Shown: piece by piece, positions 16,858 through 60,182 of the stretch
Numbering within the stretch: position 1 is the first letter of the stretch
How the letters are laid out: every line of letters begins with the position of its first letter
NCBI RefSeq assembly: GCF_044324875.1
Contig: NZ_CP172185.1
Source: Escherichia coli
Lineage (GTDB): Bacteria; Pseudomonadota; Gammaproteobacteria; Enterobacterales; Enterobacteriaceae
Length of the DNA stretch: 64,000 bases
Reading direction: 5' to 3' (one strand)
Notes under the pieces: model-generated
Database searches by the model: none
What the model was told of the DNA's origin: nothing
The model's input: only the letters and a program-made list of their open reading frames with translations
Program-made: the position numbers and the translations under genes

Positions 16858-20239
<3,382 letters not shown>

Positions 20240-25358: not shown

Positions 25359-26015
25359 GAGAATGTTCCTCCGGATGTTGTTAAACCAGCCGGTGTGGTC
25401 ATGAAAACAACGCACCACCTTCACCGGCATAACAACCGGGGAGAAACGTAAAAAATAATCGGGAATGTGACCGCCAGGAGATAAACGGGGAGGTTACGGT
25501 GGCTGAGCCGTACCGGTATGCCGGGTGGTTGTTACGAAACGATGCTTCCGCACGCGTGCGCGATAAAGAAGGGATGATTTTCGTGAGGAAGAGGGGAAAA
25601 CTGGCGTTCTGATAATTGCAGAGTTATTTACGGGGCGGTTACGATGGGGCAGACCGTGTCCGGTGGGCAGGCGACAGGTATCACCGATGGGATAAGACTG
25701 TCTGATTGGTATTATAAATATATAAGAGAGATCAAACACATGAGATCAAATACATGAGTTCATATATGTGAAATAAACACGGTGAGTGTGATCAGTGGGC
25801 ATGATGAGAACGCTGCAAAATGGCATCTGAATCGATCGCAGTTTGGCATTCGAATCGATCATGATTTGGCATCCATCTCCGATCACAGTTTGGCATCACA
25901 ATCGATCACGATTTGGCATGCTTCCGATCATTGATTGGCATCCTGCCAGTCACTCCGGGAATTAACTCTTTTCACCACAGTCTCCATTGCCGTGTTTAAA
26001 CCAGTGGAGACGTCA

Positions 26016-27581
26016 ATGTCCAGAAAGAGAAAATCCAGGAGCACTATGGAAACCTGTTTTAAGATCCTTCAGCTCAAGTTCGACAAGAAGCTGACTAACC
26101 GTTGTATCGGACTGACGTTACACATCAGCGCCTCAACCGTTTTTGAGGTTCTTGCCCGCTTCAAAGCCTCTTCTCTGTCATGGCCATTACCTGCTGATAT
26201 ATCCCATGACACGCTGGAGAAACTCATTTTTCCGCCCAAAGACACCTTTGCATCAGAGCTTGTAATGCCTGACATGTTGTACTTCGATACGGAAATGAGA
26301 AAACCAGGTGTGACGCGGCAACTGTTGTGGATGGAATACAAGGCACAGGCGGGTAACAAAGCGATGGGATACTCGCACTTCTGCCGTTGCTACCGGGAGT
26401 GGAAAAAAACGCGACGTCTCTCCATGCGCCAGGAGCATCGTGCCGGCGAAAAGCTTTTTATCGACTTCTGTGGTCCTACGGTTCCTGTTATTAATCCGGA
26501 CACCGGTGAGATACGCCGCGTGGCAATCTTCGTGGCCGTAATGGGGGCGTCCAACTATACCTACGTTGAAGCGTGCGAAGGTCAGGACATGATGTCATGG
26601 TTAAATGCCCACAGCCGTTGCCTGACCTTCCTGGGCGGCGTACCGAAGCTGCTCATCCCCGATAACCTCAGAAGCGCAGTGAAAAAGGCCGATCGATATG
26701 AGCCTGTCATCAACGACAGTTATCAGGCACTGGCTGAGCACTATGGCACGGTTATCATCCCGGCCCGACCACGCAAACCTAAAGATAAACCAAAAGCAGA
26801 AAACGGCGTCCTCATCGTTGAACGATGGCTTCTTGCCCGCATCCGTAATGAAACCTTCCACACGCTCAGGGCGCTGAATGCGCGCCTTAGGGAGTTACTG
26901 ACAGACATGAATAACCGGCCAATGAAGGGGTACGGCAATCAAACCCGTGCAGAACGCTTCCGCATACTGGATGCGCCAGCACTCTCTCCGCTGCCTCTGG
27001 CACCTTATGAATACACGGAATACAAAGCTGTGAAGGTTGGCCCTGACTACCACGTTGAATATGCCCGTCACTGGTACTCCGTTCCACACGAACTGGTCGG
27101 TCAGCGTCTGTCACTGAAGGCGGGGCAGTCGGTGGTACAGCTCTGGCACAAGGGGCAGTGTGTGGCGCAACATCCGCGCAGCACACATGAATATAAACAC
27201 ACAACCAATCCGCTTCACATGCCAGAGCGCCACCGGCAGCACGGGACATGGACACCGGAACGCCTGATCGAGCAGGGAAAACGTACGGGCCCGTCCACAG
27301 GCCGGGTGGTTGAATCCATGCTGAAGGCAAAACCCCATCCGGAACTGGCTTATCGTGCAGTTCTGGGGCTGCTGGCACTTCAGAAAAAATACGGCCCGGA
27401 ACGGCTGGAAAAGGCCTGTTACGTTGCCCTGCACTATAACGCCCCTGACAGACGCTTTATCGACAATCTGCTGCGTCACCATCGGGAGAACCTGGAGCTT
27501 CCATTATCCCGCCAGGGCGAACAACATCCGGCATATGCTTCAGAGCATGAAAACCTGCGTGGTCCGGGCTACTACCACTGA
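26016..27581 (+). CDS. IS21-family transposase IstA
   Basis: HTH N-terminus plus DDE domain; start placed at MSRKRKSRS. Confidence 0.85.
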   Translation: MSRKRKSRSTMETCFKILQLKFDKKLTNRCIGLTLHISASTVFEVLARFKASSLSWPLPADISHDTLEKLIFPPKDTFASELVMPDMLYFDTEMRKPGVTRQLLWMEYKAQAGNKAMGYSHFCRCYREWKKTRRLSMRQEHRAGEKLFIDFCGPTVPVINPDTGEIRRVAIFVAVMGASNYTYVEACEGQDMMSWLNAHSRCLTFLGGVPKLLIPDNLRSAVKKADRYEPVINDSYQALAEHYGTVIIPARPRKPKDKPKAENGVLIVERWLLARIRNETFHTLRALNARLRELLTDMNNRPMKGYGNQTRAERFRILDAPALSPLPLAPYEYTEYKAVKVGPDYHVEYARHWYSVPHELVGQRLSLKAGQSVVQLWHKGQCVAQHPRSTHEYKHTTNPLHMPERHRQHGTWTPERLIEQGKRTGPSTGRVVESMLKAKPHPELAYRAVLGLLALQKKYGPERLEKACYVALHYNAPDRRFIDNLLRHHRENLELPLSRQGEQHPAYASEHENLRGPGYYH

Positions 27582-27597
27582 CAGAAGGAACAACAGT

Positions 27598-28353
27598 ATG
27601 AGTGATAACCTGTTAAACAAACTGACCCAACTGAAACTCCCGGCGATGGCCGGGAGCCTGATACGGCAGCGGGAAACGCCTCAGACCTACGACGAACTGT
27701 CGTTCGAGGAAAGGCTGACGCTGCTGGTTGATGACGAGCTTCTGAGCAGGGAAAACAGCCGTGTGGCACGGTTGAGAAAAAATGCCGGCCTGAAATACCA
27801 GGCAACACCGGAAGGGCTGCGCTATCCGGCCTCAAGAGGTCTGCGGGCTGAACAGATGAGAGAACTGCTGAACGGCCACTACATAACCCACAGGAAAAAC
27901 CTGCTGATAACCGGTCCGACAGGATGTGGCAAGAGCTGGATAGCCAATGCGCTGGGCGAACAGGCATGTCGACAGAAACACAGCGTCCGGTACTGTAGAA
28001 CCGGGCGATTACTGGAACAACTGGCTCAGGGACGTGTTGATGGCAGCTGGCTGAAATATCTGAAACAGTTGCAAAAAATACAGGTTCTAATCCTGGACGA
28101 TCTGGGGCTGGAACAGTTAAGTAACGCCCAGTGTAATGACCTTCTGGAGCTCATAGAGGATCGTTACGGACAAAGCAGCACGATAGTGGTAAGCCAGTTC
28201 CCGGTAGATAAATGGCATGGTCTGATGGAGAACCCAACAACAGCAGATGCCATCCTGGACAGACTGGTACATAACTCACACCGAGTGGTCCTTCAGGGAG
28301 AGTCACTGAGGAAAAATCCCCCGGTAGTGGAAAGCAGCGAAAAAACGCGTTAA
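27598..28353 (+). CDS. IS21-family ATP-binding helper IstB
   Basis: Walker A GPTGCGKS, Walker B ILDDLG. Confidence 0.85.
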   Translation: MSDNLLNKLTQLKLPAMAGSLIRQRETPQTYDELSFEERLTLLVDDELLSRENSRVARLRKNAGLKYQATPEGLRYPASRGLRAEQMRELLNGHYITHRKNLLITGPTGCGKSWIANALGEQACRQKHSVRYCRTGRLLEQLAQGRVDGSWLKYLKQLQKIQVLILDDLGLEQLSNAQCNDLLELIEDRYGQSSTIVVSQFPVDKWHGLMENPTTADAILDRLVHNSHRVVLQGESLRKNPPVVESSEKTR

Positions 28354-29324
28354 AAAGCGGTAGAAAAAGTTAAGTTCCCGGTTGATCGAATGGATGCGAA
28401 TCGCTGATCGGACTTCGATGCCAATCCGTGATCGAATAGAGCGGAATACGCAAACGCAGTAGCAACAGACTGCGCTATCCCTGATAGCTGGCGTATAACC
28501 CGCGTATATAAAACGTATCTGCAATGTACGTGAACAGAGTGCATTAAGCATCCGTCTGAGCGGTAAACATATCCGACCTGGTGAGTGACAGTCTGAGAGA
28601 CCGGTTAAGTGGTGGCTCGGGAGTAATGAGTTTGGGGTGGGTACCAGAATGCCAGTCTGGCGGTATGCTGACAGTATCACGTTAATTGCAGCATAAAGTG
28701 ATGAGAGGCTAATGGAAGTTAAAACCAAAGCAGTTCCGTCGTTGTTCATCCCGGGAGACGCTGGAAAAAGTGATTTCCCACACGCGTTATAAACTTACCT
28801 CTGCGGAACTGGAAGCCTTCAACTCTGTGGTTGATCACTGGCTGGCAGAACTGACAATGAACAAGCTTTACGATCGTGTTCCCGCTTCAGTCTGGAAATA
28901 TGTCATCTGAGCGTTCGGTAATCACAACTGCATCGCGCCAGGTGTTATCCGCTTTGTGATTCTTATTGGCTCTTCTCAGGTTATTAAAAGCTGAATATGT
29001 TCCTGTTGTCGGGAACCAGGATAATACCGGGAACGTTAAGCGGTATAGCGACAACAAAGAATTCGAAATCAAAAGGGAATGGTGCCGGAGGCGTGGGCGG
29101 TAATGGGCTGATTTTCAGGTATTACCGGCTTACAGCGTGTGGTTGATATTGAGGGGCTGTGAGTTTCACGTATTTGTCAGAAACCCAGACGAGTTTTCCT
29201 GTATGGGACGAAATAAGGCAGCGGCAATACATGGAAAAATTTAATATGGTATGAAGGAGAACCTGTCGGTTACGCTTAATATAACCGGTACACTGTCAGC
29301 TCAGGGGATACATGAACCGTTATC

Positions 29325-47454: not shown

Positions 47455-49026
47455 TTACTGAGAGCTCAGATCAACTTTCCAGGGCAACAGATCGCGTACC
47501 CGGTTTGCCGGCCAGTCCTGGATATGTTCAATGACGTAACGCAGCCACTTTTCTGGCTCCACATTGTTCAGACGGCATGTGCCGATCAGCGAGTACAACA
47601 CCGCCGCATGTTCACCACCGCTGTCGGAACCCGCGAACATCCAGTTTTTCCGGCCTACGGCCACTCCCCGTAAGGCGTTCTCTGCGATGTTGTTGTCGAT
47701 TTCCACCCAGCCATTACTGCAGTACACGTTCAGTGCATCCCACTGTTTCAGCAGGTATGCGAACGCTTTTGCCGTATCTGAGTGACGCGACAGTGTTTTC
47801 ATCTGTTGCTGTATCCAGTCATACAGTGACTGCATCAGTGGCGCGGCTCTGGCTTTTCTTGCCGCCAGACGCTGTTCTGCTGAACAGCCCCGGACCTCTG
47901 CCTCGATGGCATACAGTTCACCGATACGCTGCAGGGCTTCCGTGGTGATGTAGGTGGGCGCTCTTGCATGCACATCGTGGATTTTTCTCCGGGCATGAGC
48001 CATACACGCGGCTTCCGTTATTCTGCCGGATTCGTATAACGCCCGGTAACCACCGTAAGCATCGGCCTGAAGCACACCGCTGTAACCGGCCAGGTGATTT
48101 TGTGGATGGATACCTTTCCGGTCCGGACTGTACGCGAACCAGACCGCCGGGGGCATCTGTGAACCGGCGTTACGGTCATCACGGACGTAGACCCACAGCC
48201 GGGCTGTCCGGGTTTTACCGCTGCCCGGCTCCTGGACCGGGACGGGGATATCATCAGCATGGACTTTACCGGGCATCAGCACATACTGGCGCAGGACGTC
48301 ATACAGCGGCTCCAGCAGTTCAGCAACAGCACCTGTCCAGCGCCCCAGTGTGGCACGGCTCAGCTCCACTCCCTGACGACGGTATATTTCTGACTGGCGG
48401 TATAACGGCAGATGGTCTGCATATTTCCCGGTGACAACATGGGCCAGAAGCCCCGCTCCGGCATAACTGCGTGCAATGGGTTTTGAAGGTACTGGTGCCT
48501 GCACGATATGGTCGCACCGGCAACAGGCCTGTTTCGGACGTTGTGTTTCGATAACCTTAAAGGCGCTGCTGATAAGCTCCAGTTGCTCTGACACATCACA
48601 TCCCAGAGAACTGAGTTCACCACCACAGGCAGGACAGCATTCCTCTTCCGGCCGGATAACCCGGGTTTCACGGGGAAGTGAGGCCGGTAACGGTTTACGG
48701 GCTGAAGACTGGCGCAGGGCGGATGGCAGTACCGGGTCATATTGCTCACCCAGCGTTTCCGCCATTTCTTCCTGAAGTGCGCTGATTCGCTCCTGTGCTT
48801 CCTGTATCTGCCGTTCGGTTTTTGCACGAAGTTTTTCTGAGCTTTTACCGAACTGCATACGTTGCAGTTTCGCAACCAGCGCCTTCAGCCGGTTGATTTC
48901 GGAAGCATAAGCCGCCACCCGCTGTGAGAGCAGGCGGTTGTATTCAGCCATCTGGCGGATGGTGTCCTGTTGCGTCTGCAACAGTGCCCGCAGGCGGGCG
49001 TTCTCATGAGCAAGTGAGGTGTCCAT
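47455..49026 (-). CDS. IS66-family transposase TnpC
   Basis: 523 aa; N-terminal coiled coil/leucine zipper, zinc-finger CPACGG, DDE region. Confidence 0.9.
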
Positions 49027-49045
49027 ATCCTCACTTTACAACGGG

Positions 49046-49393
49046 TTATATGCGGATTCCAGCGCGTTCCGTTCGTTTCGGGTGCTTCCAGTTGATACCT
49101 TCAAGAAGCATGGATAACTGAGCCGGAGTAAGGTGCACCTTGCCGTCACGGGTGACTGGCCAGACGAAGCGGCCCCGCTCCAGGCGTTTGGTGAAGAGGC
49201 ACAGTCCGTCACTGTCAGCCCACAACACTTTTATCTGGTCACCCCGGCGTCCGCGGAAGATGAACAGGTGTCCGGAGAACGGGTCATCCTTCAGGACGTT
49301 CTGAACTTTTGATGCCAGGCCGTTAAAGCCATTTCGCATATCGGTGATACCTGCAACCAGCCAGATACGCGAACCTGCAGGGAGAGATATCAT
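49046..49393 (-). CDS. IS66-family TnpB
   Basis: 115 aa; MISLPAGSRIWLVAGITDMRNGFNGLA is the conserved IS66 Orf2 signature. Confidence 0.9.
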   Translation of the reverse strand: MISLPAGSRIWLVAGITDMRNGFNGLASKVQNVLKDDPFSGHLFIFRGRRGDQIKVLWADSDGLCLFTKRLERGRFVWPVTRDGKVHLTPAQLSMLLEGINWKHPKRTERAGIRI

Positions 49394-50070
49394 CAGTGGC
49401 TGCTCCCTTTTATTTCGCGGATAAGTGTCTGTAATAACGCCGGCGTCAGTTTACCTTTAAGCCTGAGAGTTCCGGCCGGCAGAACCAGCTCACAACACAG
49501 ACTGTCGGACGGTGTATTTATCTGCTCTGGTTCCTGTGCGGGGGCCGGGATTTTATTATCCGGCTCCGGCGTTAACGTCACGGGAAGCAGTGCCGGCATA
49601 TTTTTTCCGGAAGGCAGCAGGCCACCTTTCCGGTATTGATGGCGCCAGTTGAAGAGCAGGTTATCGTTGATTCCGTTTTCCCGGGCGATCTGCGCCACAC
49701 AGGCTCCGGGCTGCAGTGACTGCTCCACTAAGGCGATTTTAAACTCATAAGGGAAGTTGGGCCGCCGGGGACGTTTTTTTACCACGGGGGCTTCGGATAT
49801 AACGGTGCTTTCAGGACGTACGACTGGTACCGTGGAAAATTGTCCGTAAAGGCAGGCATCAAGTTCCTGCTCCGACATGCCTGCGGGCAAAGGCCACGAA
49901 AGGCCAGCTCTCCGAAAGCGCACGAACATACTACAAACTGTTGATTTTGGTACACCCAGGCGACGCCCGGCCACAACCCGGGGTAAATGTTCTTCAAAGT
50001 GAAGACGTAAAGCTTCAGTGATCCAGGTCCGGTGTTTCATACGATAGTGTCCATTAAAAATGATGGACAT
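49393..50070 (-). CDS. IS66-family accessory protein (TnpA/Orf1-like with HTH)
   Basis: 225 aa; start overlaps the tnpB stop; N-terminal HTH. Confidence 0.7.
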   Translation of the reverse strand: MSIIFNGHYRMKHRTWITEALRLHFEEHLPRVVAGRRLGVPKSTVCSMFVRFRRAGLSWPLPAGMSEQELDACLYGQFSTVPVVRPESTVISEAPVVKKRPRRPNFPYEFKIALVEQSLQPGACVAQIARENGINDNLLFNWRHQYRKGGLLPSGKNMPALLPVTLTPEPDNKIPAPAQEPEQINTPSDSLCCELVLPAGTLRLKGKLTPALLQTLIREIKGSSH

Positions 50071-50140
50071 TATTTTTGTAGAGCCGGAGGAAACAGACCA
50101 GACGGTTTAAATGAGCCGGTTACGATTTTAAGGTGCTTGC

Positions 50141-50416
50141 GTGGCTTCCATTTCCATCAGATGTCCTTCCTGCTCCGCTACTGAAGGCGTGGTGCGTAAC
50201 GGCAAAAGCACTGCCGGACATCAGCGCTATCTCTGCTCTCATTGCCGTAAAACATGGCAACTACAGTTCACTTACACCGCCTCTCAGCCCGGTACGCACC
50301 AGAAAATCATTGATATGGCCATGAATAGCGTCGGATGTCGCGCCAGTGCACGCATTATGGGCGTTGGCCTCAACACGGTTTTACGTCACTTAAAAAACTC
50401 AGGCCGCAGTCGGTAA
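50141..50416 (+). CDS. insA: IS1 InsA
   Basis: 91 aa, [40 protein letters not shown]. Confidence 0.9.
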
Positions 50417-50790
50417 CCTCGCGCATACAACCGGGCAGTGATGTGATTGTCTGCGCTGAAATGGACGAACAGTGGGGCTACGTCGGTGCTAAATCACGTC
50501 AGCGCTGGCTGTTTTACGCGTATGACAGGATACGGAGGACGGTTGTGGCGCACGTCTTCGGTGAACGCACTCTGGCCACACTGGAGCGTCTTCTGAGCCT
50601 GCTGTCGGCCTTTGAGGTCGTGGTATGGATGACGGATGGCTGGCCGCTGTATGAATCACGCCTGAAGGGAAAGCTGCACGTTATCAGCAAGCGTTACACT
50701 CAGCGCATTGAGCGACATAATCTGAATCTGAGATCTGGCAAGGCTGGGACGGAAGTCACTGTCGTTCTCAAAATCGGTGGAGCTGCATGA
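50335..50790 (+). CDS. insB: IS1 InsB (expressed as InsAB by frameshift)
   Basis: matches the IS1 InsB region. Confidence 0.85.
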
Positions 50791-51430
50791 CAAGGTCATC
50801 GGGCATTATCTGAACATAAAACACTATCAGTAAGTTGGAGTCATTACCAACGGTAAATATCCATAAGTGTGGGCTTGCGGAATAAATAGTTTGGTTAAAG
50901 ATAAGGTGGTTTAATACTGCTGAGTATTTTATAGGAGATATGATGTTGTTTTATAAACAAACTAAAAAACATGAAGTTTAATTGATAGGGGACAATGAAA
51001 TCTCCTTTTTAAACTCAATTGCTATGTTGGGTTTATGGGGTTGCTATAAACGGTTTTGAATAAACGCTTTACTATTCTCATGAAAACAGTGTTATGTTGT
51101 TATTTTAACAACCCCGCATTGTTTTTTGATGGGATGGGTATTAAGACTTTAGAGAAACTTTATAAATAAATATATGTATTCAATAGTGGCGAAAATAATA
51201 ACCCATCTTATTATTACATTGTGGAAGTGCTCTTTTTTATTATCGCTCATGTTTTACCTTTCTGTTAAAACATATTCTTTCGGATATGTAAAATGGTAAG
51301 AGATAGTTAATCTACGTATGCATGGGGGCGTTTCATTGCATGGCGTTATAATCTGGCTTGTATATAAAGGCACTATAAGTTTTACTCTTACAGTGCCTTT
51401 ATTTGGCCATGATTTACCCTCTACAATAAA

Positions 51431-53818
51431 TTAATCATTACAGGATAGGTTCATATTCCATTCATAAGCCTCAATGCCGTTAATCAGTAGTTGACGACTT
51501 TCTCCCTGAGGAATTATCACTTTCAATGTTTCCCATGCAGGGCGATAATCTCCATGAGTGTTTATTCTTAACTCAATTGTAGTGGCTGTGCAGTCCAGCT
51601 CCCATTCAAGCCACAGAGCATTACCTTCAGTATATCCCCAAGTTTCGCCATCATCTTCAAACAGAAGTCCGGTGGATTTACCCGTTCCTTTAATTGGGAA
51701 TAATTTCAATTTACGATGATTATCTTCCGCTTCACTCACGTATGTTATACGTTCACTAAGAGGAATACCTGCACCTGCACGTACTAATAATGGTAGTTTT
51801 TCCAGTGGCGCGTCGATTGTTATCCATTGACCACCACAGAACCATTCGCCATTGTAAAAGTCGTACCATCCTGTTTTGTTGTCGGGTAACCATACTCGTC
51901 GTTGTCGTTGCCCTGCTTCCACGACACTTGCAACCAGAATATCGCGTCCCAGCATAAAATCATCACATTCTTCAAATGTCTGAACATCGTGCTCATGATC
52001 AAGGAAGGTTGGACGTAATATTGGCTCATCATCGGCATGTGCCTGCCACAATAATGTATATAAATAAGGCATAAGACGATAACGTAACTCAATTGCACTA
52101 CGAATCGCGGGTGTTACTTCCGGATACATCCATGGTTCATTGACAGTATGATCATCATTCCACGAGTGGATCGTAAATCGGGGGTGCATAACACCGTTCT
52201 GAACCCAACGAACAAATAATTCTGGATCAGGCTTATCACCAGAAAAACCACCGACATCATGACCAATGTTATACAATCCTGAGAGGCTCATTCCCAGCCC
52301 CATGCGGGTGTTGTATCGAAGGGTATCCCAGTTAGTTCGGTTGTCCCCACTCCATGTCTGAACATAACGCTGCAATCCGGCGCATCCAGAGCGGGAAATC
52401 AAATATGGTCGTTTGTTCGGTGCAAATTTTTGCTGTGCTTCCATAGATGCTCTGCACATTAAAAGAGGCATTACTGGCCGAATGTGTTTAATGGCGATTT
52501 CTTTGCCAAAACCATGACAGCGCGCTTCCCCATCCCATACTTCAAACTCATTGTTATCATTCCAGGTGGAATCAATTCCCATTTCAAGTAGTTGTGTGGT
52601 TACACCTTCCTGCCACCATGCGACTGTTTGTGGGTTCGTAAAGTCCAGATGAGAACCCTCATCATCCCAGAAGCTGGAGCGTTCCGGGACGTTGTATTCA
52701 GAGTCACGAATAAAGAGCTCTTGTTCTGCTACTTCGTTATAGCGAGGATGATCCTGCAATAAACATGGTTTTATATTAGCGGCCAGGTGTATCCCTGCAT
52801 TATGAAACTCCTGACTCATCATTTTAGGGTGTGGAACTTTGTCGTAATTCCAGTTGAATACGTAGCGTTTACCATTAATAGAAGTATAACCAGAAGATAG
52901 CTGGAAAGAATCACATGGAATAGCATGTTCCTTACAAAGACGAATAAACTGCATCAATTGATTCTGAGCATCCGGTGCATCTGTATAGTGCATCGTGGAA
53001 CCGCTGTACCCAAGACTCCATTTTGGACCGAAGAGTGTTTTCCCCGTCAAACGAACAAAGGCTTTGGTGATATCAAGTACACATCTGCCAGTGAAAAGAT
53101 AATAATCAATATCTCCCGCCTCAGCCTGCCAACGGCGGTAAGTTGTATGATAATTATCTATTTCATTACCTAAATCCAGCCAACTATTGCTGAGGTTATC
53201 ATAAAATAATCCAAAGCTAATATCGCTACGGTGAGTAATTGTAAATGGAATATGTTTATAAAGAGGGTCTGTACTTACTGCATTATATCCCATTGCGTCC
53301 AGGTTCCGCATTTCATAGCGTTTTCCTGTGCGTTGCAGATCCCCGGATTTATCACCAAGTCCATAAAAACGCTCGTCATTACGTCGACTTTGATAGTGTG
53401 CAACACCATCACCATGAGCGTTTATCAGATAAGCACTGGTAGGGCGATCATTAACAAGTTCCTGCCACTGACCAGCATTATCCTTATAATGCCATTCAAG
53501 CCATAAAGGCTTGTGAATAATTACGCGTAATGAACTGGTCGTGATTGTCAGTAATTCATCATTCTGCTCCATGTTCCAGGTCGGCAGTGAAAAACCGCTA
53601 ATATCTTCGCGATGACGCCCTTCCCACGGGACATCCTTTTCCGGAGCAATGCTCCAGGTTCGGTCCAGCGACAAAACCCCCTTCCGTTTTAATAGAACCC
53701 GGAACATATTTTCTTCGAGTATATACAGGCAAAGAGAATGCTGACCATCAACTAATAGCTCTATATGATGGGCTGACTGATTTTGTAGTTTCCAGTTTTT
53801 TAATGTTTTCATCTCCAC
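51431..53818 (-). CDS. glycoside hydrolase family 31 (alpha-glucosidase/alpha-xylosidase-like)
   Basis: 795 aa; GH31 catalytic region (WSGDN, GHDVGGF). Confidence 0.9.
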   Translation of the reverse strand: MEMKTLKNWKLQNQSAHHIELLVDGQHSLCLYILEENMFRVLLKRKGVLSLDRTWSIAPEKDVPWEGRHREDISGFSLPTWNMEQNDELLTITTSSLRVIIHKPLWLEWHYKDNAGQWQELVNDRPTSAYLINAHGDGVAHYQSRRNDERFYGLGDKSGDLQRTGKRYEMRNLDAMGYNAVSTDPLYKHIPFTITHRSDISFGLFYDNLSNSWLDLGNEIDNYHTTYRRWQAEAGDIDYYLFTGRCVLDITKAFVRLTGKTLFGPKWSLGYSGSTMHYTDAPDAQNQLMQFIRLCKEHAIPCDSFQLSSGYTSINGKRYVFNWNYDKVPHPKMMSQEFHNAGIHLAANIKPCLLQDHPRYNEVAEQELFIRDSEYNVPERSSFWDDEGSHLDFTNPQTVAWWQEGVTTQLLEMGIDSTWNDNNEFEVWDGEARCHGFGKEIAIKHIRPVMPLLMCRASMEAQQKFAPNKRPYLISRSGCAGLQRYVQTWSGDNRTNWDTLRYNTRMGLGMSLSGLYNIGHDVGGFSGDKPDPELFVRWVQNGVMHPRFTIHSWNDDHTVNEPWMYPEVTPAIRSAIELRYRLMPYLYTLLWQAHADDEPILRPTFLDHEHDVQTFEECDDFMLGRDILVASVVEAGQRQRRVWLPDNKTGWYDFYNGEWFCGGQWITIDAPLEKLPLLVRAGAGIPLSERITYVSEAEDNHRKLKLFPIKGTGKSTGLLFEDDGETWGYTEGNALWLEWELDCTATTIELRINTHGDYRPAWETLKVIIPQGESRQLLINGIEAYEWNMNLSCND

Positions 53819-53826
53819 ATACTCCC

Positions 53827-55128
53827 TCAGGTGCGTTTTTTGCGACGTTCTGCAATAAAAGTAACCAGAAAAAAAGCACCAATAAGATCAAAAAATCCCA
53901 TGGCGATAAATAGCGGGTTAAAGCCTATTTTGTCAGCAGTAACGCCAATAATCAGTGAGAACAAAAAGCTGGCAATCCATGCGGCTGAACCACGCATTCC
54001 ATTAACAGTGGCCATCTGCCCCTTATCAAAAGATTCAACGACCAGGGCACTTAACATGCAGGAAATTATCTGATGACCAAAACCACCAATGGAGATAAGT
54101 ACAATAGCAATATATGGATTGTCGATAAAAGCAATCACAGCAAGCGAAACCATTAGAAATGCTCCGCTTACAGAGGACGCAATAACAGAATTTACTCTGC
54201 TTAACCCAAACAGACGGGTATAGAGTTTTGTCAGATATCCGCTGGCAATACTTCCTAAATCAGCGCAAAGAAATGGTAACCATGCAAACAGAGCTATTTG
54301 TTTAAGGTCCATGCCATATGCTTTTGCAAGATATAATGGCACCCAAAAGCTCATTACAGCCCATGCTGGCTCTGCCATAAATGCAGGGATAGCGATTCCA
54401 TAAAAGCGTTTATTTTTACTAACTGTTTTTAACGCGGTCAGAAAAGGCATTTTTACCGGAGGAGCTTCGTTATCCTGTCGGATAAAGTTGAGCTCATTTT
54501 TACTTAAGTTTGGGTGCTCTTCTGGTGTGTTATAACACGCCCACCAAAGGAAAACCCAAAGAATTGCAAGTGCACCTGTAAACATAAATGCACCCTGCCA
54601 ACCAAATGACGCATGTGCAAAGTAAATAATTGGTGGTGCAAGCATTGCACCGATAGAAAAACCGACACCCGCCCAGCCAGCAGCAACAGGACGTTCAGAT
54701 TTTGGAAACCACTCACCTATAATTTTTGCATTTGCAGGTGTCGCAGAAGCCTCAGCACCTCCCATGAAAAAACGAAGCAACGCAAGCTGTATCCAGCTTC
54801 CTGCTCCTGCATGCAGAAGACAAGCAATTCCCCATAATGAAGCACAAATCATAAATCCAATCTTGAGCCCAATAACATCAATTAGCCATCCACAAAGTGG
54901 CTGAAAAAGGGTATATGCAAGCTGAAATCCACCAACAATCCAGGAGTATTGTTCAGTTGTAATTCCAAGGCTGTCTTTTAACTCTGGTGCCAAAATACCT
55001 AATGAGTTTCTGGTAATATAATTGACAGTGACACCCATTAGAAAAAGGATTAACATCCACCACCGTAGTTGTCTTATTATTCGACGGTGTTTGCTGACAG
55101 CTATATTATTATTTATATCCTGACTCAT
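53827..55128 (-). CDS. MFS transporter (anion:cation symporter-like)
   Basis: start placed at the internal ATG (MSQDINNN) with RBS; 12 TM; operonic with the GH31 gene. Confidence 0.8.
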   Translation of the reverse strand: MSQDINNNIAVSKHRRIIRQLRWWMLILFLMGVTVNYITRNSLGILAPELKDSLGITTEQYSWIVGGFQLAYTLFQPLCGWLIDVIGLKIGFMICASLWGIACLLHAGAGSWIQLALLRFFMGGAEASATPANAKIIGEWFPKSERPVAAGWAGVGFSIGAMLAPPIIYFAHASFGWQGAFMFTGALAILWVFLWWACYNTPEEHPNLSKNELNFIRQDNEAPPVKMPFLTALKTVSKNKRFYGIAIPAFMAEPAWAVMSFWVPLYLAKAYGMDLKQIALFAWLPFLCADLGSIASGYLTKLYTRLFGLSRVNSVIASSVSGAFLMVSLAVIAFIDNPYIAIVLISIGGFGHQIISCMLSALVVESFDKGQMATVNGMRGSAAWIASFLFSLIIGVTADKIGFNPLFIAMGFFDLIGAFFLVTFIAERRKKRT

Positions 55129-55389
55129 AATCACCCCACCGGATGTAATAAATGATCGAGCGACAACGCAGCTCGGGGTTGCCACATCCCACTTTACCTT
55201 TCGGCTTAATACTTAAACCGGAACTACTCATTCACAATAAAAGAGGGGGGCGATGAAAAAAAGTTGGTATTGTGCACGTTTTTTCATAAGTAGTTCATAT
55301 AAATTCTAAAAATAGTCAGAAGTCCTTGCAGTCAGGCTATTCCATCCCATGAGAATTTTTTCATTTTGAAATTAGAGATAGATCACAAT

Positions 55390-56460
55390 ATGGAAAAAAA
55401 ACTAAAGATTGCTGATATTGCCATGCGAACAGGCCTTTCATCCAGCACCGTGTCACGGGTTTTAGCGGGTAAAGCTAATACCAGTTATCGTGCCCGCGAG
55501 AAAGTATTGGCGTGTGCCAGAGAGCTTGGGGTTATGGATGGAATGGCATCCGGCCGTATGTTGTTAAACAACCTTGTCATTTTTGCTCCTCAACGGGCTT
55601 TTGATGAGCGAACAGACATTTTTTATTTCCGCGTAATCCAAAGCATCAGCAAGGCATTATCGCATTATGAGGTTCGGTTGCGTTACTGTGCCCTTGATGA
55701 GTTCGATAGTACACCTTCAAAATTCCTGGCGCGCATGAATGAGGCAGAAACACAGGCTGCAATATTGCTTGGTATTGATGATCCTCATATACATGATCTT
55801 GCAGCAGATTTTTCTAAGCCGTGCGTAATGATTAACTGCCATGATCGACGTATGCGTCTTCCCACAGTTGCTCCAGATCACAAAAACATTGGTGCTTTTG
55901 CGTCTCACTTTCTGTTTGAAATGGGGCATCGCAGAGTAATGAACATTATGTGTTTACGTCGATACACAATGGAACTGCGACTTGCCGGAATTAAAGAAGC
56001 ATGGGAGAGACAGAATCAGAACTTTAAAGATGACAGAGATTTACTCACTATTAATAGTTTCAGCGCCAAAGAAGCCGAAGAAAAAGTCGGAGCATGGCTG
56101 GATATGACAGAGAAAAGTATGCTACCGACTGCTTTTTTGGCAAGTGGGGACTTCATTGCTGCAGGTATAATTAACGCTTTAAAAAAACGTAATATACGAG
56201 TGCCACAAGATGTGTCCGTAATGAGTATTGATGGGTTTAATCTGGCTGCAATAGAAGATGTGCCACTTACGGCAGTACATGTACCTCGCGATGAACTGGG
56301 TACTGAAGCGGTACATATGTTACAACAAAGACTTGTACGTCCTGATGCAACTGTTGGTGCATTACTTTTGTATGGGAAACTGGTAATACGAGAATCTGTT
56401 CGCCGTATACGGCCAGGGAAAGAGCCAACTCCGATTAAAGGAGATGGACTGTATGACTGA
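55390..56460 (+). CDS. LacI-family transcriptional regulator
   Basis: HTH KIADIAMRTGLSSSTVSRVLAG; the track ORF begins at an upstream TTG, the ATG at 55390 is preferred; divergent from the MFS-GH31 operon. Confidence 0.8.
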   Translation: MEKKLKIADIAMRTGLSSSTVSRVLAGKANTSYRAREKVLACARELGVMDGMASGRMLLNNLVIFAPQRAFDERTDIFYFRVIQSISKALSHYEVRLRYCALDEFDSTPSKFLARMNEAETQAAILLGIDDPHIHDLAADFSKPCVMINCHDRRMRLPTVAPDHKNIGAFASHFLFEMGHRRVMNIMCLRRYTMELRLAGIKEAWERQNQNFKDDRDLLTINSFSAKEAEEKVGAWLDMTEKSMLPTAFLASGDFIAAGIINALKKRNIRVPQDVSVMSIDGFNLAAIEDVPLTAVHVPRDELGTEAVHMLQQRLVRPDATVGALLLYGKLVIRESVRRIRPGKEPTPIKGDGLYD

Positions 56461-56857
56461 AACCACAGCCTCTGATTCTTCCGGTCAAGGGAAAATAAGC
56501 GTAATGTTCATCACCAGATTATGTACGATGAGTTTTCCACTGTTTATAGCAATTATCTTGCTAATAACCAGACAGGAGTAACCAGACCAACCGAAAACAC
56601 CGGGAAGGTGATTACCCGCTGGCAGAGGAAATCCGGTTTTTTTTGATGTCAGCCATAACGTGTTTGACAATAAAGCATTATGAAAGGGTGTTAATGAGTC
56701 CATGGGATAATTCATAAAAATAATTTACTGTGTTATCCTTTTCAAAAGAAATATTCAGAAGATAACCCCTGGCTGACAACCAGGGGAAGGGGACATTAAC
56801 AGTGTTATTATTGGTGGATAAATTATTACTTGTGTGCAGGATACACTAATGCAATAT

Positions 56858-57901
56858 CTACTGATACTGTATGCCAGTATGTTTCATGCCTGCCGCTGAA
56901 AACGGCAATATCCAGGGCCAGACATATTCACCATTCATATTTCTGCATTTCTGTACAATTTTTTCAGAAAGCGTCTCATCAATTCTTTCACGCAACTTCT
57001 CCTGCTGTCTTAAAATACTTTCGCATATTTCGAAATCACCTTCCTGCATCAGCATTTCGGCGCATTTAATGATTTCTGCCCGTTCATGCAGCACAGAGGA
57101 ATGATTATAGAGCCAGTTTACAAACAGCAATGCTTCCGGATATTGTCCCCATAATGGTGAGTATGTTGCATAGTAATCTTCTGCCGTATCCAGAGAGCCG
57201 GAGAAGTCATGCCACACAGCAAGTGGAAATGGATGCAGATTTCCGCACAGCATTTCTGCGATGTAAGTGTTTGTGGCAAAGCCATGGCGAAAATCTGTGG
57301 CGGCCTTAACATGTTCCCCGTTCAGAAAATGCAGGAGACCGAGTTCATACCAGTAAGGTGAAAATTCATCAGCATGCTCTTTCAGTACACTGAAGGCTCG
57401 CTCATGATCGCCGGTGCGTAACAGCTCTGAACCCAACAACCAGCGAGCCCCCTGATTATCTTCAGGATTGTATGCCAGTATTTTATCAGTGAGCATAACC
57501 GCATCCTGATGGCGCTGTAAGTGCACATTTGCGAGAATTGCTGCATAAAGCGCGCGCAGATAAGGCCGGTTTTCGGGATGCATCCAGATTATTTCACCAC
57601 AGAAACTTTCCGGGATGATACGATTACCTGCCGCCAGTCCTTTAAGAGCGGCGTTCAGTGCCTTACGCGGGGCATTCTGTTCCAGAAATGCATATGCCAG
57701 ATGAGCGTGTATATCAATAAAATCCGGCTCCCGTTGAGCAAGGCGTCGGAGTTTGTTGATGTAACTCGTCTCGCTGATTTCATCAGCGTCGTATGCATCA
57801 AGCACTTCTTCAAACTCCCCCAGCAATGGGCCAAACCAGGTATCCGGAAATACGAAATAACCCTGGTTATCGTGCACTTCAAAGCATAATCTATCGTTCA
57901 T
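56858..57901 (-). CDS. TPR-like repeat protein of unknown function
   Basis: 347 aa, helical repeat pattern; single gene between the integrase and the sugar cluster. Confidence 0.6.
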   Translation of the reverse strand: MNDRLCFEVHDNQGYFVFPDTWFGPLLGEFEEVLDAYDADEISETSYINKLRRLAQREPDFIDIHAHLAYAFLEQNAPRKALNAALKGLAAGNRIIPESFCGEIIWMHPENRPYLRALYAAILANVHLQRHQDAVMLTDKILAYNPEDNQGARWLLGSELLRTGDHERAFSVLKEHADEFSPYWYELGLLHFLNGEHVKAATDFRHGFATNTYIAEMLCGNLHPFPLAVWHDFSGSLDTAEDYYATYSPLWGQYPEALLFVNWLYNHSSVLHERAEIIKCAEMLMQEGDFEICESILRQQEKLRERIDETLSEKIVQKCRNMNGEYVWPWILPFSAAGMKHTGIQYQ

Positions 57902-58311
57902 TTTCTGAGCCTGTAAAACATGTGGTGATATAGTCTGAGAGCATAAAAGTTGAGATTCTGTGTATCAAGTCCTGTCTTGGCACTGAATGAATATTGCTTA
58001 CAAAGCCCCTTCATGCTTTCCTTGAGAACAATAATTTTATCTTTATGTGAATCTCATTTTTTATAATGATGTCAGATGATTGAAATGCTAAATTATATCT
58101 GAATCAACTTTTCCTTTGCTAAAGGTATCGAAATAACTGCAAGGCTGTATTTTGTAATTGCCAATTTTAAAATGTCAATTTGCTTTTAATTATGTTTTTG
58201 TAATAAGTTTGAAGACGCAAAAAATAATATAATAACAAAAATCCTCCAGCCTTGTAGGCCAGAGGATAAAATACTTAATTGAGGAAAACATCAGGGAAAA
58301 GTATTTTTGAC

Positions 58312-59496
58312 TTAACTTTCCCGGCTGGAGAGTGAATCAATGTAATCAGCGTACCATTGCATCATTTCACGGCGGCCATCGAGATACAGGGCATGATTAT
58401 AGGTACCCCTGATGGAATTTTTATCCACATGAGCTAACTGCATTTCAATCCAGGCGGAATTAAAGCCTTGTTCATGCAGAATTGTACTCATGGTGTGTCT
58501 GAAACCGTGCCCTGTGAGTCTTCCCTTATATCCAAGTAATTCAATTACTTGGTTAATGCTTTCCTTACTAATTGGTTTGCGGGGATCATTTCTACCGATA
58601 AAGACTAGGGGATGATGTTTTGAGATTGGTTCAAGCTGCTTAAATAGCATAATGACCTGCTCAGAGAGCGGCACAATATGAGGTCGCTTCATCTTCATTA
58701 CTTCTGCCGGGATCTCCCACAATTTTGTCTCAAAATCGATATCTTCCCAGCGTGCAAAACGCAGTTCTTGTGTTCGTACGCCGGTTAACATAATGATCTG
58801 AGTAGCTGTCTTAGTGATTATACTTCCGGTATAACCCGCCAGATCGTTGAGGAAGTGGGGAAGTTCATTAGCAGTAAGAAAGGGAAAATGTACTTTTTTC
58901 GGTGTAGCTAAAGCACTGGCAAGATCGGGGGCTGGGTTATAGTCTGCCCGGCCAGTAACAATTGCATAGCGGAACACCTCACCACAGCGCTGGCGGACCT
59001 TGCGCATTTTCTCCAGAGCTCCACGTTTTTCCATTTTACGCAGTGCTTCCAGTAACTCCATTGGTTTGATTTCGGCAATAGGGCGCTTGCCAATGTAGGG
59101 AAAAATGTCTTTTTCAAAGGTATCAATGATTTCATCACGATAGCGTAATGACCACCGATCGGCTTTTGACTGGTGCCATTCGCGAGCAATAGCCTCGAAC
59201 GTATTTTGCAGACTCATTTGCTGCGCGATTTTTTCTTCCTTTTTTGCCTCCCCTGGATCGCCTCCAGCAGCGAGGAGTTTCCTGGCTTCACTGCGTTTCT
59301 CGCGAGCATCGGCTAGCGTTACATCGGGGTATACGCCAATAGAAAGCATCTTTTCTTTACCAGCAAAGCGGTACTTCATGCGCCAGTATTTAGAACCATT
59401 AGTGTTAATCAGTAGATACATACCGCCGCCATCAGCAAGCTTATAGGGTTTGTCTTTGGGTTTTGCGGTTTTCACTTTGATATCGGTTAATGCCAT
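58312..59496 (-). CDS. P4-type tyrosine integrase
   Basis: 394 aa; N-terminus MALTDIKVKTAKPKDKPYKLADGGGMYLLI; catalytic R...H..R...Y region; adjacent to the tRNA. Confidence 0.9.
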   Translation of the reverse strand: MALTDIKVKTAKPKDKPYKLADGGGMYLLINTNGSKYWRMKYRFAGKEKMLSIGVYPDVTLADAREKRSEARKLLAAGGDPGEAKKEEKIAQQMSLQNTFEAIAREWHQSKADRWSLRYRDEIIDTFEKDIFPYIGKRPIAEIKPMELLEALRKMEKRGALEKMRKVRQRCGEVFRYAIVTGRADYNPAPDLASALATPKKVHFPFLTANELPHFLNDLAGYTGSIITKTATQIIMLTGVRTQELRFARWEDIDFETKLWEIPAEVMKMKRPHIVPLSEQVIMLFKQLEPISKHHPLVFIGRNDPRKPISKESINQVIELLGYKGRLTGHGFRHTMSTILHEQGFNSAWIEMQLAHVDKNSIRGTYNHALYLDGRREMMQWYADYIDSLSSRES

Positions 59497-59780
59497 GACA
59501 TCCTCCGGCTTTTGATGAATTCATGTTCCTGAGGGGGATTTCTGCCAGTAACTAACCTGATACCCCCAATACACCCCTTGTATAACAAAGATGTTGTTAA
59601 AAGCCGTTGTTATATATCATATTTTTCCTATTATGGGGGTGCTGGTATTTCAATAGGAAATAACACCCCCTAAAGTACCCCCAAAAGAAACTTGATACGG
59701 GGTGAAGTAGGTTGACCTCTGGATACAAATAAATACTGATATACAAGGGATTAGAAGAGATTTATTGACATTGGGAGAGT

Positions 59781-59819
59781 TCAGAAGAGGTAAACTGGCG
59801 GAAGATCACAGGAGTCGAA
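59781..59819. repeat. island attachment-site repeat, selC-proximal copy (overlaps the 3' end of selC)
   Basis: direct repeat of 8348-8386. Confidence 0.7.
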
Positions 59820-59890
59820 CCTGCCCGGGACCGCTGGCGGCCCCAACTGGATTTGAAGTCCAGCCGCCTCACCGGAGACGACGATCTTCC
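59796..59890 (-). tRNA. selC: tRNA-Sec (selenocysteine, UCA anticodon)
   Basis: rc of 59796-59890 reads GGAAGATCGTCGTCTCCGGTGAGGCGGCTGGACTTCAAATCCAGTTGGGGCCGCCAGCGGTCCCGGGCAGGTTCGACTCCTGTGATCTTCCGCCA, the E. coli selC sequence (95 nt). Confidence 0.95.
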
Positions 59891-60182
59891 GCGCCTCGAT
59901 TGCTACATGGAGGCGGGGCGCATTATAGCTACTTCCTTGAGTTTCTACATCCCCCAGATCAGTTTTTTCCGCCTAATACACGCAGCGTATTATCACGGAA
60001 GCATTATAATTCATATAAAACCCATATTTTACAATGATATATGAGCGGAATTAACGCTACCACGATCACATAAAACAAGAATCATAAATTAATAACCAGA
60101 TATCGGAATATTCGCTCTCACAGGGATGGTTTACAAAATGCGTTATCGGTCTCAGCACCCCTATAGCATCAAGGAAAAGCAG

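Follow-up and report, generated by a model that had tools for sequence, protein, structure and literature searches.

The aec-35/36/37 cluster of a selC island in Escherichia coli: an ExuT-like transporter and a GH31 glycosidase with a predicted role in hexuronate-linked alpha-glycoside use

The stretch of Escherichia coli DNA analysed here (64,000 nucleotides of contig NZ_CP172185.1, RefSeq assembly GCF_044324875.1; the window in what follows) carries, on a genomic island next to selC, a cluster of three genes for a glycoside hydrolase family 31 (GH31) glycosidase, a major facilitator superfamily (MFS) transporter and a LacI-family regulator. An earlier note on this DNA had placed these three functions at 51431-56460, and the open reading frames (ORFs) and Pfam matches confirm them there. 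The ORF list contains three long frames in that interval, of 795 residues (minus strand), 452 residues (minus) and 364 residues (plus); because RefSeq annotation of the identical DNA and the lengths of orthologues both indicate shorter products (793, 433 and 356 residues), the gene models are as follows.

51431..53812, minus strand: GH31 glycosidase Aec-37; likely start ATG at 53812, 793 residues, WP_001313395.1 (ORF 51431-53818)
53827..55128, minus strand: MFS transporter Aec-36; likely start ATG at 55128, 433 residues, WP_001329026.1 (ORF 53827-55185)
55129..55389: divergent control region, intergenic between the MFS and LacI genes
55390..56460, plus strand: LacI-family regulator Aec-35; likely start ATG at 55390, 356 residues, WP_000412404.1 (ORF 55366-56460)

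Aec-37 has the N-terminal PF13802, TIM-barrel PF01055 (E 1e-89) and C-terminal PF21365 domains, all three above their cut-offs, together with DUF5110. Aec-36 matches MFS_1 (E 4e-58), and Aec-35 combines the LacI helix-turn-helix PF00356 with the periplasmic-binding-protein-like PF13377 and PF00532.

The gene names are those of a published cluster. All 5,030 bases of the interval match the chromosome of strain BEN2908 (NZ_LR740776.1), with which the RefSeq protein accessions are likewise shared, and a 24-kb stretch of the island has the chromosome of this strain, an avian pathogenic E. coli (APEC), as its top match. The order selC, integrase, tetratricopeptide-repeat (TPR) protein, LacI, MFS, GH31 is common to the window and BEN2908, and the fos locus of AGI-3 lies upstream within the window, on the same island. 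Since BEN2908 is the strain where AGI-3 was described (Chouikha et al. 2006, J Bacteriol 188:977; GenBank AY857617, as cited in PMC3325963), it is close to certain that the locus is the aec-35 (LacI)/aec-36 (MFS)/aec-37 (glycosidase) cluster, module 1 of the selC island AGI-3. The earlier note had associated a cluster of this composition with AGI-3, and on this point it was right.

As judged from its sequence, Aec-36 is an ExuT paralogue, of a type that transports organic anions as opposed to neutral disaccharides. Over its full length it shares 43% identity with the K-12 hexuronate transporter ExuT, and it belongs to the anion:cation symporter family (ExuT, DgoT type). Among NCBIfam models the best match is TIGR00893 (D-galactonate/anion:cation symporter subfamily), whose score of 266 bits lies below the subfamily cut-off of 395, so that orthology with DgoT does not apply. 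DgoT is the best relative with a solved structure (E 8e-37); Arg40 and Glu126 of Aec-36 align with its Arg47 and Glu133, and the position of DgoT Asp46 is occupied by threonine, as in ExuT. In the work on the DgoT structure, Arg47 is reported to bind the substrate carboxylate.

In Aec-37, the nucleophile Asp419 (in WNDNNE) and the acid/base Asp490 (in WSGDN) align with Asp416/Asp482 of YicI, with Asp405/Asp472 of YihQ and with the engineered Asp-to-Ala site of FjDex31A. The protein lacks a signal peptide and is cytoplasmic. Its closest solved structures, at about 30% identity, are FjDex31A, endoplasmic reticulum (ER) glucosidase II and MalA-type enzymes. When 1.8 billion representative proteins were searched exhaustively and the results aligned, Aec-37 fell into a large clade that takes in 99 of the 116 top representatives of full length, extends to about 30% identity and has Asp419 and Asp490 invariant. 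An invariant signature at six positions (Aec-37 numbering) sets the clade apart from a canonical comparison set of 15 representatives that carry the pocket residues D, I, D and M.

Position 306: S, G or A in the clade; D in canonical-type enzymes
Position 307: S in the clade; I in canonical-type enzymes
Position 316: R in the clade; Y or F in canonical-type enzymes
Position 346: N in the clade; I in canonical-type enzymes
Position 348: K in the clade; D in canonical-type enzymes
Position 420: N in the clade; M in canonical-type enzymes

Aec-37 itself has Ser306, Ser307, Arg316, Asn346, Lys348 and Asn420. Four of these, Ser306, Asn346, Lys348 and Asn420, replace canonical pocket residues: the Asp of the DIDYM motif, the Ile and Asp of the IxDP strand, and the Met that follows the nucleophile. 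In GH31 structures, the DIDYM Asp binds the O4 and O6 atoms of the sugar in the -1 subsite, the pocket of which is lined by the Ile and Met. In pairwise HMMER alignments, Ser306 lies opposite the DIDYM Asp in FjDex31A and in the structure 5djw, and opposite a Glu in the alpha-galactosidase PsGal31A. The clade signature is absent from all solved structures with which Aec-37 was compared; other family residues (Arg474, Trp487, Asp519, Phe523 and His549) are retained. The loss of two acidic residues together with the gain of two basic ones would suit a sugar bearing a carboxylate, much as an Arg holds the sulfonate group in the sulfoquinovosidase YihQ.

We note that the invariant Asn346 (window about 52775-52777) stands where GH31 hydrolases have Ile, and that asparagine is also found at this position in the GH31 alpha-glucan lyases (review, PMC12441222). 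A sulfoquinovosidase function was considered and rejected: in YihQ the sulfonate is held by a pocket formed by Arg301, Trp304 and Tyr508 (PMC8006165), and of this triad only the arginine aligns (with Arg316 of Aec-37), Trp304 and Tyr508 being aligned with Phe residues. Behind the gene for one distant clade member (38% identity) come genes that encode a 2-hydroxyacid dehydrogenase, a PfkB kinase and a DeoC-type aldolase, a set that would suit sugar-acid catabolism; the contexts of three distant clade members, on contigs of 3-7 kb, give little information.

The control region contains sequences that resemble two kinds of operator.

55349..55364: predicted LacI-type operator O1, ATGAGAATTTTTTCAT; ends 25 nt upstream of the LacI start codon
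55272..55287: weaker LacI-type box O2, GTGCACGTTTTTTCAT; only one half matches well; arm of an inverted repeat at 55253-55287
55260..55270: half-site AAAGTTGGTAT resembling the ExuR/UxuR operator; a full box stands at the equivalent place in other genera

In other species, 68 of 71 regions have the palindrome ATGAAAAAATTTTCAT at a constant distance of 25 nt from the start codon of the LacI gene, at a threshold that 0.7% of shuffled sequences reach. A second, weaker box lies about 77 nt further on in 15 other species, and O2 is at the equivalent offset. Both boxes are typical of LacI-family operators and support a dedicated, probably autoregulated repressor, in keeping with the helix-turn-helix, the effector domain and the nearby predicted operator that give Aec-35 the features of a LacI/GalR repressor. 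A scan of 50900-56900 for promoters and terminators gave nothing convincing in the control region, and a candidate CRP site there was rejected by eye because its right half is mismatched.

The second kind of operator connects the module, in other genera, with hexuronate metabolism. With AAATTGGTATACCAATTT, which we take to be the consensus of the ExuR/UxuR-type box, as the pattern, the 33 kb upstream of the MFS genes contain 31 boxes that match at 14 or more of 18 positions, and the other 1.46 Mb contain 2; the boxes are thus enriched roughly 700-fold, and the enrichment involves 29 species. Among these species are ones with LacI-type loci, in Yersinia, Serratia, Pectobacterium, Hafnia, Budvicia and Kluyvera.

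The gene neighbourhoods point the same way. Orthologues of Aec-37 (67-85% identity) are present throughout the Enterobacterales and in some Pseudomonas species, from which 85 loci were analysed by tblastn. In about 80 of these, whatever the regulator or chromosomal context, the MFS gene stands directly beside the GH31 gene, with 10-15 bp between them, and about 70 have a divergent LacI orthologue. Eleven loci, from 10 species, carry divergent uxuA-(uxuB)-uxaC-uxuR in place of the LacI gene, i.e., the glucuronate branch of the hexuronate pathway with its regulator; the species are Erwinia amylovora, E. psidii, five Pantoea, a Klebsiella sp., Enterobacter cancerogenus and one metagenome-assembled genome. 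In Edwardsiella the triad adjoins a uidABC-like set (GH2, GPH transporter, porin). At other loci the triad is flanked by unrelated housekeeping genes (xseA, guaBA, der, bamB, ybiU, ybiT), uninformative as to function, for example xseA and guaBA in Serratia and Rahnella, and the ybiU-ybiT interval in Enterobacter, Klebsiella and Citrobacter; such flanks mark the triad as a self-contained module. The three genes are best explained as a catabolic module, complete in itself, that came from another member of the Enterobacterales.

The ybiU-ybiT site lies beside ybiW-ybiY in Enterobacter, Citrobacter and Kluyvera, and the same neighbourhood in E. coli K-12 is without the triad. YbiW has been described as a glycyl-radical enzyme for 1,5-anhydroglucitol-6-phosphate (in a review).

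Taken together, the transporter type and the comparative context, the bearing of which the earlier note had missed, point to an acidic glycoside of the hexuronate type. We propose that the cluster mediates the LacI-repressed import and hydrolysis of an anionic, hexuronate-linked alpha-glycoside that feeds the hexuronate pathway, and put the probability of this model at about 0.6, a figure that concerns the mechanism and the anionic substrate and not the identification of the locus as aec-35/36/37. Aec-35 would bind the palindromic operator ATGAAAAnnTTTTCAT in the divergent control region, and would thereby silence both the aec-36/aec-37 operon and its own gene as long as no inducer is present. 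Aec-36, as an ExuT-like proton symporter, would import the carboxylate-bearing, hexuronate-containing alpha-glycoside. Aec-37, as a cytoplasmic retaining GH31 alpha-glycosidase, would then cleave it, and the released hexuronate, most likely D-glucuronate, would enter the UxaC/UxuB/UxuA (Ashwell) pathway. The enzyme could be an alpha-glucuronidase whose substrates might be, for example, xylan-derived aldobiouronic acid, glucuronosyl-glycerol or glucuronosyl-inositol, or else an alpha-glucosidase that is specific for glucosyl-glucuronate. When the literature was searched for a GH31 alpha-glucuronidase, only inventories of carbohydrate-active enzymes came up. That Aec-37 and its clade are the first GH31 enzymes to act on uronic-acid alpha-glycosides, and so represent a new GH31 activity, is a tentative suggestion that we would not yet favour.

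Several points weigh against the proposed model. On the side of the enzyme, the nearest characterised GH31 proteins are all neutral alpha-glucosidases or a dextranase; the pocket role of the substituted residues is drawn from other GH31 structures; and an AlphaFold2 model of Aec-37, built with an 18-sequence orthologue alignment, has a mean predicted local distance difference test (pLDDT) score of 57, too poor for pocket geometry. No biochemical data on Aec-37 or Aec-36 were found in the accessible literature. On the side of regulation, the ExuR/UxuR consensus was checked on four K-12 hexuronate control regions only, where it matches at 13-14 of 18 positions, and the E. coli copy of the module has no such box at 13/18 or better, only the degenerate half-site; the link to the hexuronate regulon, which appears strong for the family as a whole, is for this reason limited to other genera and does not extend to this E. 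coli copy. In Erwinia and Pantoea, the MFS protein could simply be the hexuronate monomer transporter of the cell. Finally, the published phenotype includes trehalose, a neutral alpha-glucoside, according to a review.

That last point, and the company Aec-37 keeps among solved and characterised enzymes (alpha-glucosidases, ER glucosidase II, the dextranase FjDex31A), would fit an ordinary system for neutral alpha-glucosides (trehalose, maltose, isomaltose and the like), in which the MFS protein imports a disaccharide and the GH31 enzyme is a conventional alpha-glucosidase. Its best NCBIfam match is indeed the alpha-glucosidase MalA, some sources name the orthologues 'alpha-glucosidase', and the review sums up the BEN2908 deletion as a loss of trehalose uptake genes. 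The MalA match, however, is far below the cut-off (314 versus 800 bits), four canonical alpha-glucosidase pocket positions are altered throughout the clade, and the transporter is an ExuT paralogue of an organic-anion family instead of a sugar porter or GPH protein. A neutral substrate would also leave the recurrent pairing with uxu genes and the ExuR/UxuR boxes unexplained, and we consider it unlikely. A different division of labour, in which the transporter is an extra permease for monomeric hexuronates (galacturonate or glucuronate) and the GH31 enzyme works on an unrelated cytoplasmic substrate, would accord with the identity to ExuT and with the exuT-like place that the Erwinia/Pantoea MFS gene takes relative to the uxu and uxaC genes. 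The abstract of Chouikha and co-workers, from 2006, is also said to report slower growth of the mutant on galacturonate, which would fit an ExuT-like transporter. Yet the two genes stay together in about 80 of the 85 loci despite varied regulators and contexts, an adjacency that argues for one shared substrate, and the GH31 enzyme, having no signal peptide, needs an imported glycoside; a monomer permease is therefore quite improbable.

The position of the cluster near a second transporter-GH31 pair, the core genes yicJ and yicI, raises the further question of a common origin.

60126-61565: yicJ, GPH family
61575-63893: yicI, alpha-xylosidase equivalog (1430 bits, cut-off 606)

The end of the LacI gene and the start of yicJ are 3.7 kb apart, in agreement with the 'about 4 kb' of the earlier note. 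Each pair combines a transporter of the MFS superfamily with a GH31 enzyme, which, together with this proximity, would fit a recent duplication of yicJ-yicI that retained the same specificity. The relationship is refuted by the proteins themselves: Aec-37 and YicI are 25% identical over 538 residues, and Aec-36 has no significant BLASTP similarity to YicJ (E 0.65). Against NF007940, the NCBIfam model of the YicI-type alpha-xylosidase equivalog, Aec-37 scores 232 bits, below the 606 cut-off; YicI and YicJ are far above their own equivalog cut-offs, whereas the island proteins reach none. The three cluster genes have a G+C content of 42-44% compared with 49-52% for yicJI, and the nearest relatives of the island proteins are orthologues in Klebsiella, Enterobacter and Kluyvera, at 81-85% identity. 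A duplication can thus be dismissed for practical purposes, and the earlier note was right to regard the island GH31 as a second, distinct enzyme. Its other two distinctions also hold. The transporter is of another MFS subfamily, MFS_1 of the anion:cation symporter type as against MFS_2/GPH for YicJ; the Pfam scan of Aec-36 gives no MFS_2 match, which places it outside the GPH family. The regulator is dedicated, being a divergent LacI-family gene with a conserved palindromic operator upstream, and yicJI, which shares with the cluster the pairing of a transporter with a GH31 enzyme and the position next to selC, has no adjacent LacI regulator.

Other known systems resemble the proposed one in part. 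The exuT/uxaCA/uxuAB system of K-12 (the ExuR/UxuR regulon) is related through ExuT and through the operons of other species that carry ExuR/UxuR boxes or uxuA-uxuB-uxaC-uxuR; it differs in that ExuT carries free hexuronates and is unpaired with a glycosidase, whereas the E. coli cluster has its own LacI-type repressor. The uidABC (gus) system has the same logic, namely a dedicated repressor, a glycoside transporter, a cytoplasmic glycosidase and a product passed to the Uxu pathway, with UxuR as a second layer of control. Its components are unlike those of the cluster, with a beta-glucuronidase of family GH2 (UidA), a transporter of the GPH family (UidB) and a TetR-family repressor (UidR), and the cluster would act on alpha-linked substrates. 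The yihOPQ system provides, in YihQ, a GH31 enzyme adapted to an anionic C6 group, the Arg301 of which has its counterpart in Arg316 of Aec-37; the sequence relation is distant (E 1e-31), and the yih transporters are of the GPH family.

If Aec-37 does act on uronic-acid alpha-glycosides, the cluster would be an alpha-linked counterpart of the uidABC beta-glucuronide system, with the ExuT-like Aec-36 as its transporter, and some 6% of complete E. coli genomes (CFT073, EC958 and BLK16 among them) would have it, as would most Enterobacterales. Confirmation of the proposed hypothesis would bring a new activity to GH31, and would explain the use of an acidic alpha-glycoside by many gut and plant-associated Enterobacterales. 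The locus itself has been catalogued since 2006; the ExuT-paralogue nature of the transporter, the hexuronate context in other species and the signature of the GH31 clade were found in none of the papers searched. What is added is a testable functional hypothesis and the recognition of a large GH31 clade whose sugar pocket is predicted to be remodelled and more basic.

The model also bears on virulence, to which the earlier note had linked the cluster. According to a review, deletion of the aec genes reduced experimental colibacillosis, and the phenotype of the aec-35/36/37 deletion, as relayed by papers that cite Chouikha et al. (2006), comprises carbohydrate assimilation and attenuation in chickens. 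'aec35-37' serves as a marker in APEC gene panels. In a poultry survey, 5.4% of the clinical isolates from broilers carried the cluster, and 0% of the 'high-risk' APEC did. Because it is absent from the latter and present in the BL21(DE3)-derived laboratory strain BLK16, the link, which goes back to one deletion mutant in chickens, is weak as a general statement. A role in nutritional fitness is more plausible than a direct virulence function, and the model, if true, would recast the 'virulence' phenotype as an effect on fitness of this nutritional kind.

By megablast, 337 (6.2%) of the 5,426 complete E. coli genomes contain the 5,030-bp cluster, and 336 of these have it at 99% identity or more. 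The same selC module, consisting of integrase, TPR protein, small ORF, LacI, MFS, GH31 and YkgR-like ORF, is present in CFT073, the sequence type 131 (ST131) strain EC958 and BLK16. The remaining features of the module and the boundaries of the island are the following.

51149..51250, minus strand: small membrane protein, 33 residues, YkgR-like; downstream of the GH31 gene
56858..57901, minus strand: TPR-repeat protein, in the integrase-proximal module of the island
58312..59496, minus strand: P4-type tyrosine integrase of the selC island
59796..59890, minus strand: tRNA-Sec (selC), the integration site
8363..8388, plus strand: direct repeat of the selC 3' end (24/26 nt), the distal island boundary; partner at 59796-59821

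On its far side the island stops at the repeat of the selC 3' end, and accordingly extends from about 8.4 to 59.8 kb (about 51 kb). The window DNA comes from a strain other than BEN2908, as follows from three differences. An insertion sequence element, IS66, lies at 47455-50070, between the fos locus and IS1, whereas in BEN2908 IS66 is upstream of the fos locus; a 2.6-kb segment at 25813-28453 is missing from the BEN2908 assembly; and the alignment of 50124-64000 contains 106 mismatches, all at or beyond 59500, where selC and the core flank with yicJI lie (a divergence of about 2.4%). The 9.4 kb of island adjoining selC are identical in the two, and a divergent flank next to an identical island indicates the same island module in different strain backgrounds.

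The 33-residue protein is about one-third identical to K-12 YkgR. It travels with the module in all five annotated E. coli loci (strain 7/2, BEN2908, CFT073, EC958 and BLK16), and tblastn gave no significant match to it in the loci of other genera (best E 4.3). Elsewhere in the window, an 840-residue ORF without a Pfam match (14221-16743, minus strand) stands beside an Ag43/AIDA-type autotransporter gene (16858-19041); its BEN2908 counterpart is annotated as a frameshifted hypothetical. To the left of the distal repeat are a yicK-like MFS gene, yicL and nlpA, and beyond nlpA, at 212-3881 on the minus strand, lie genes for a type III secretion translocon and chaperone (SipB/SseC-like, TPR_3 chaperone), which resemble the eip/ETT2-associated locus annotated in strain 7/2.

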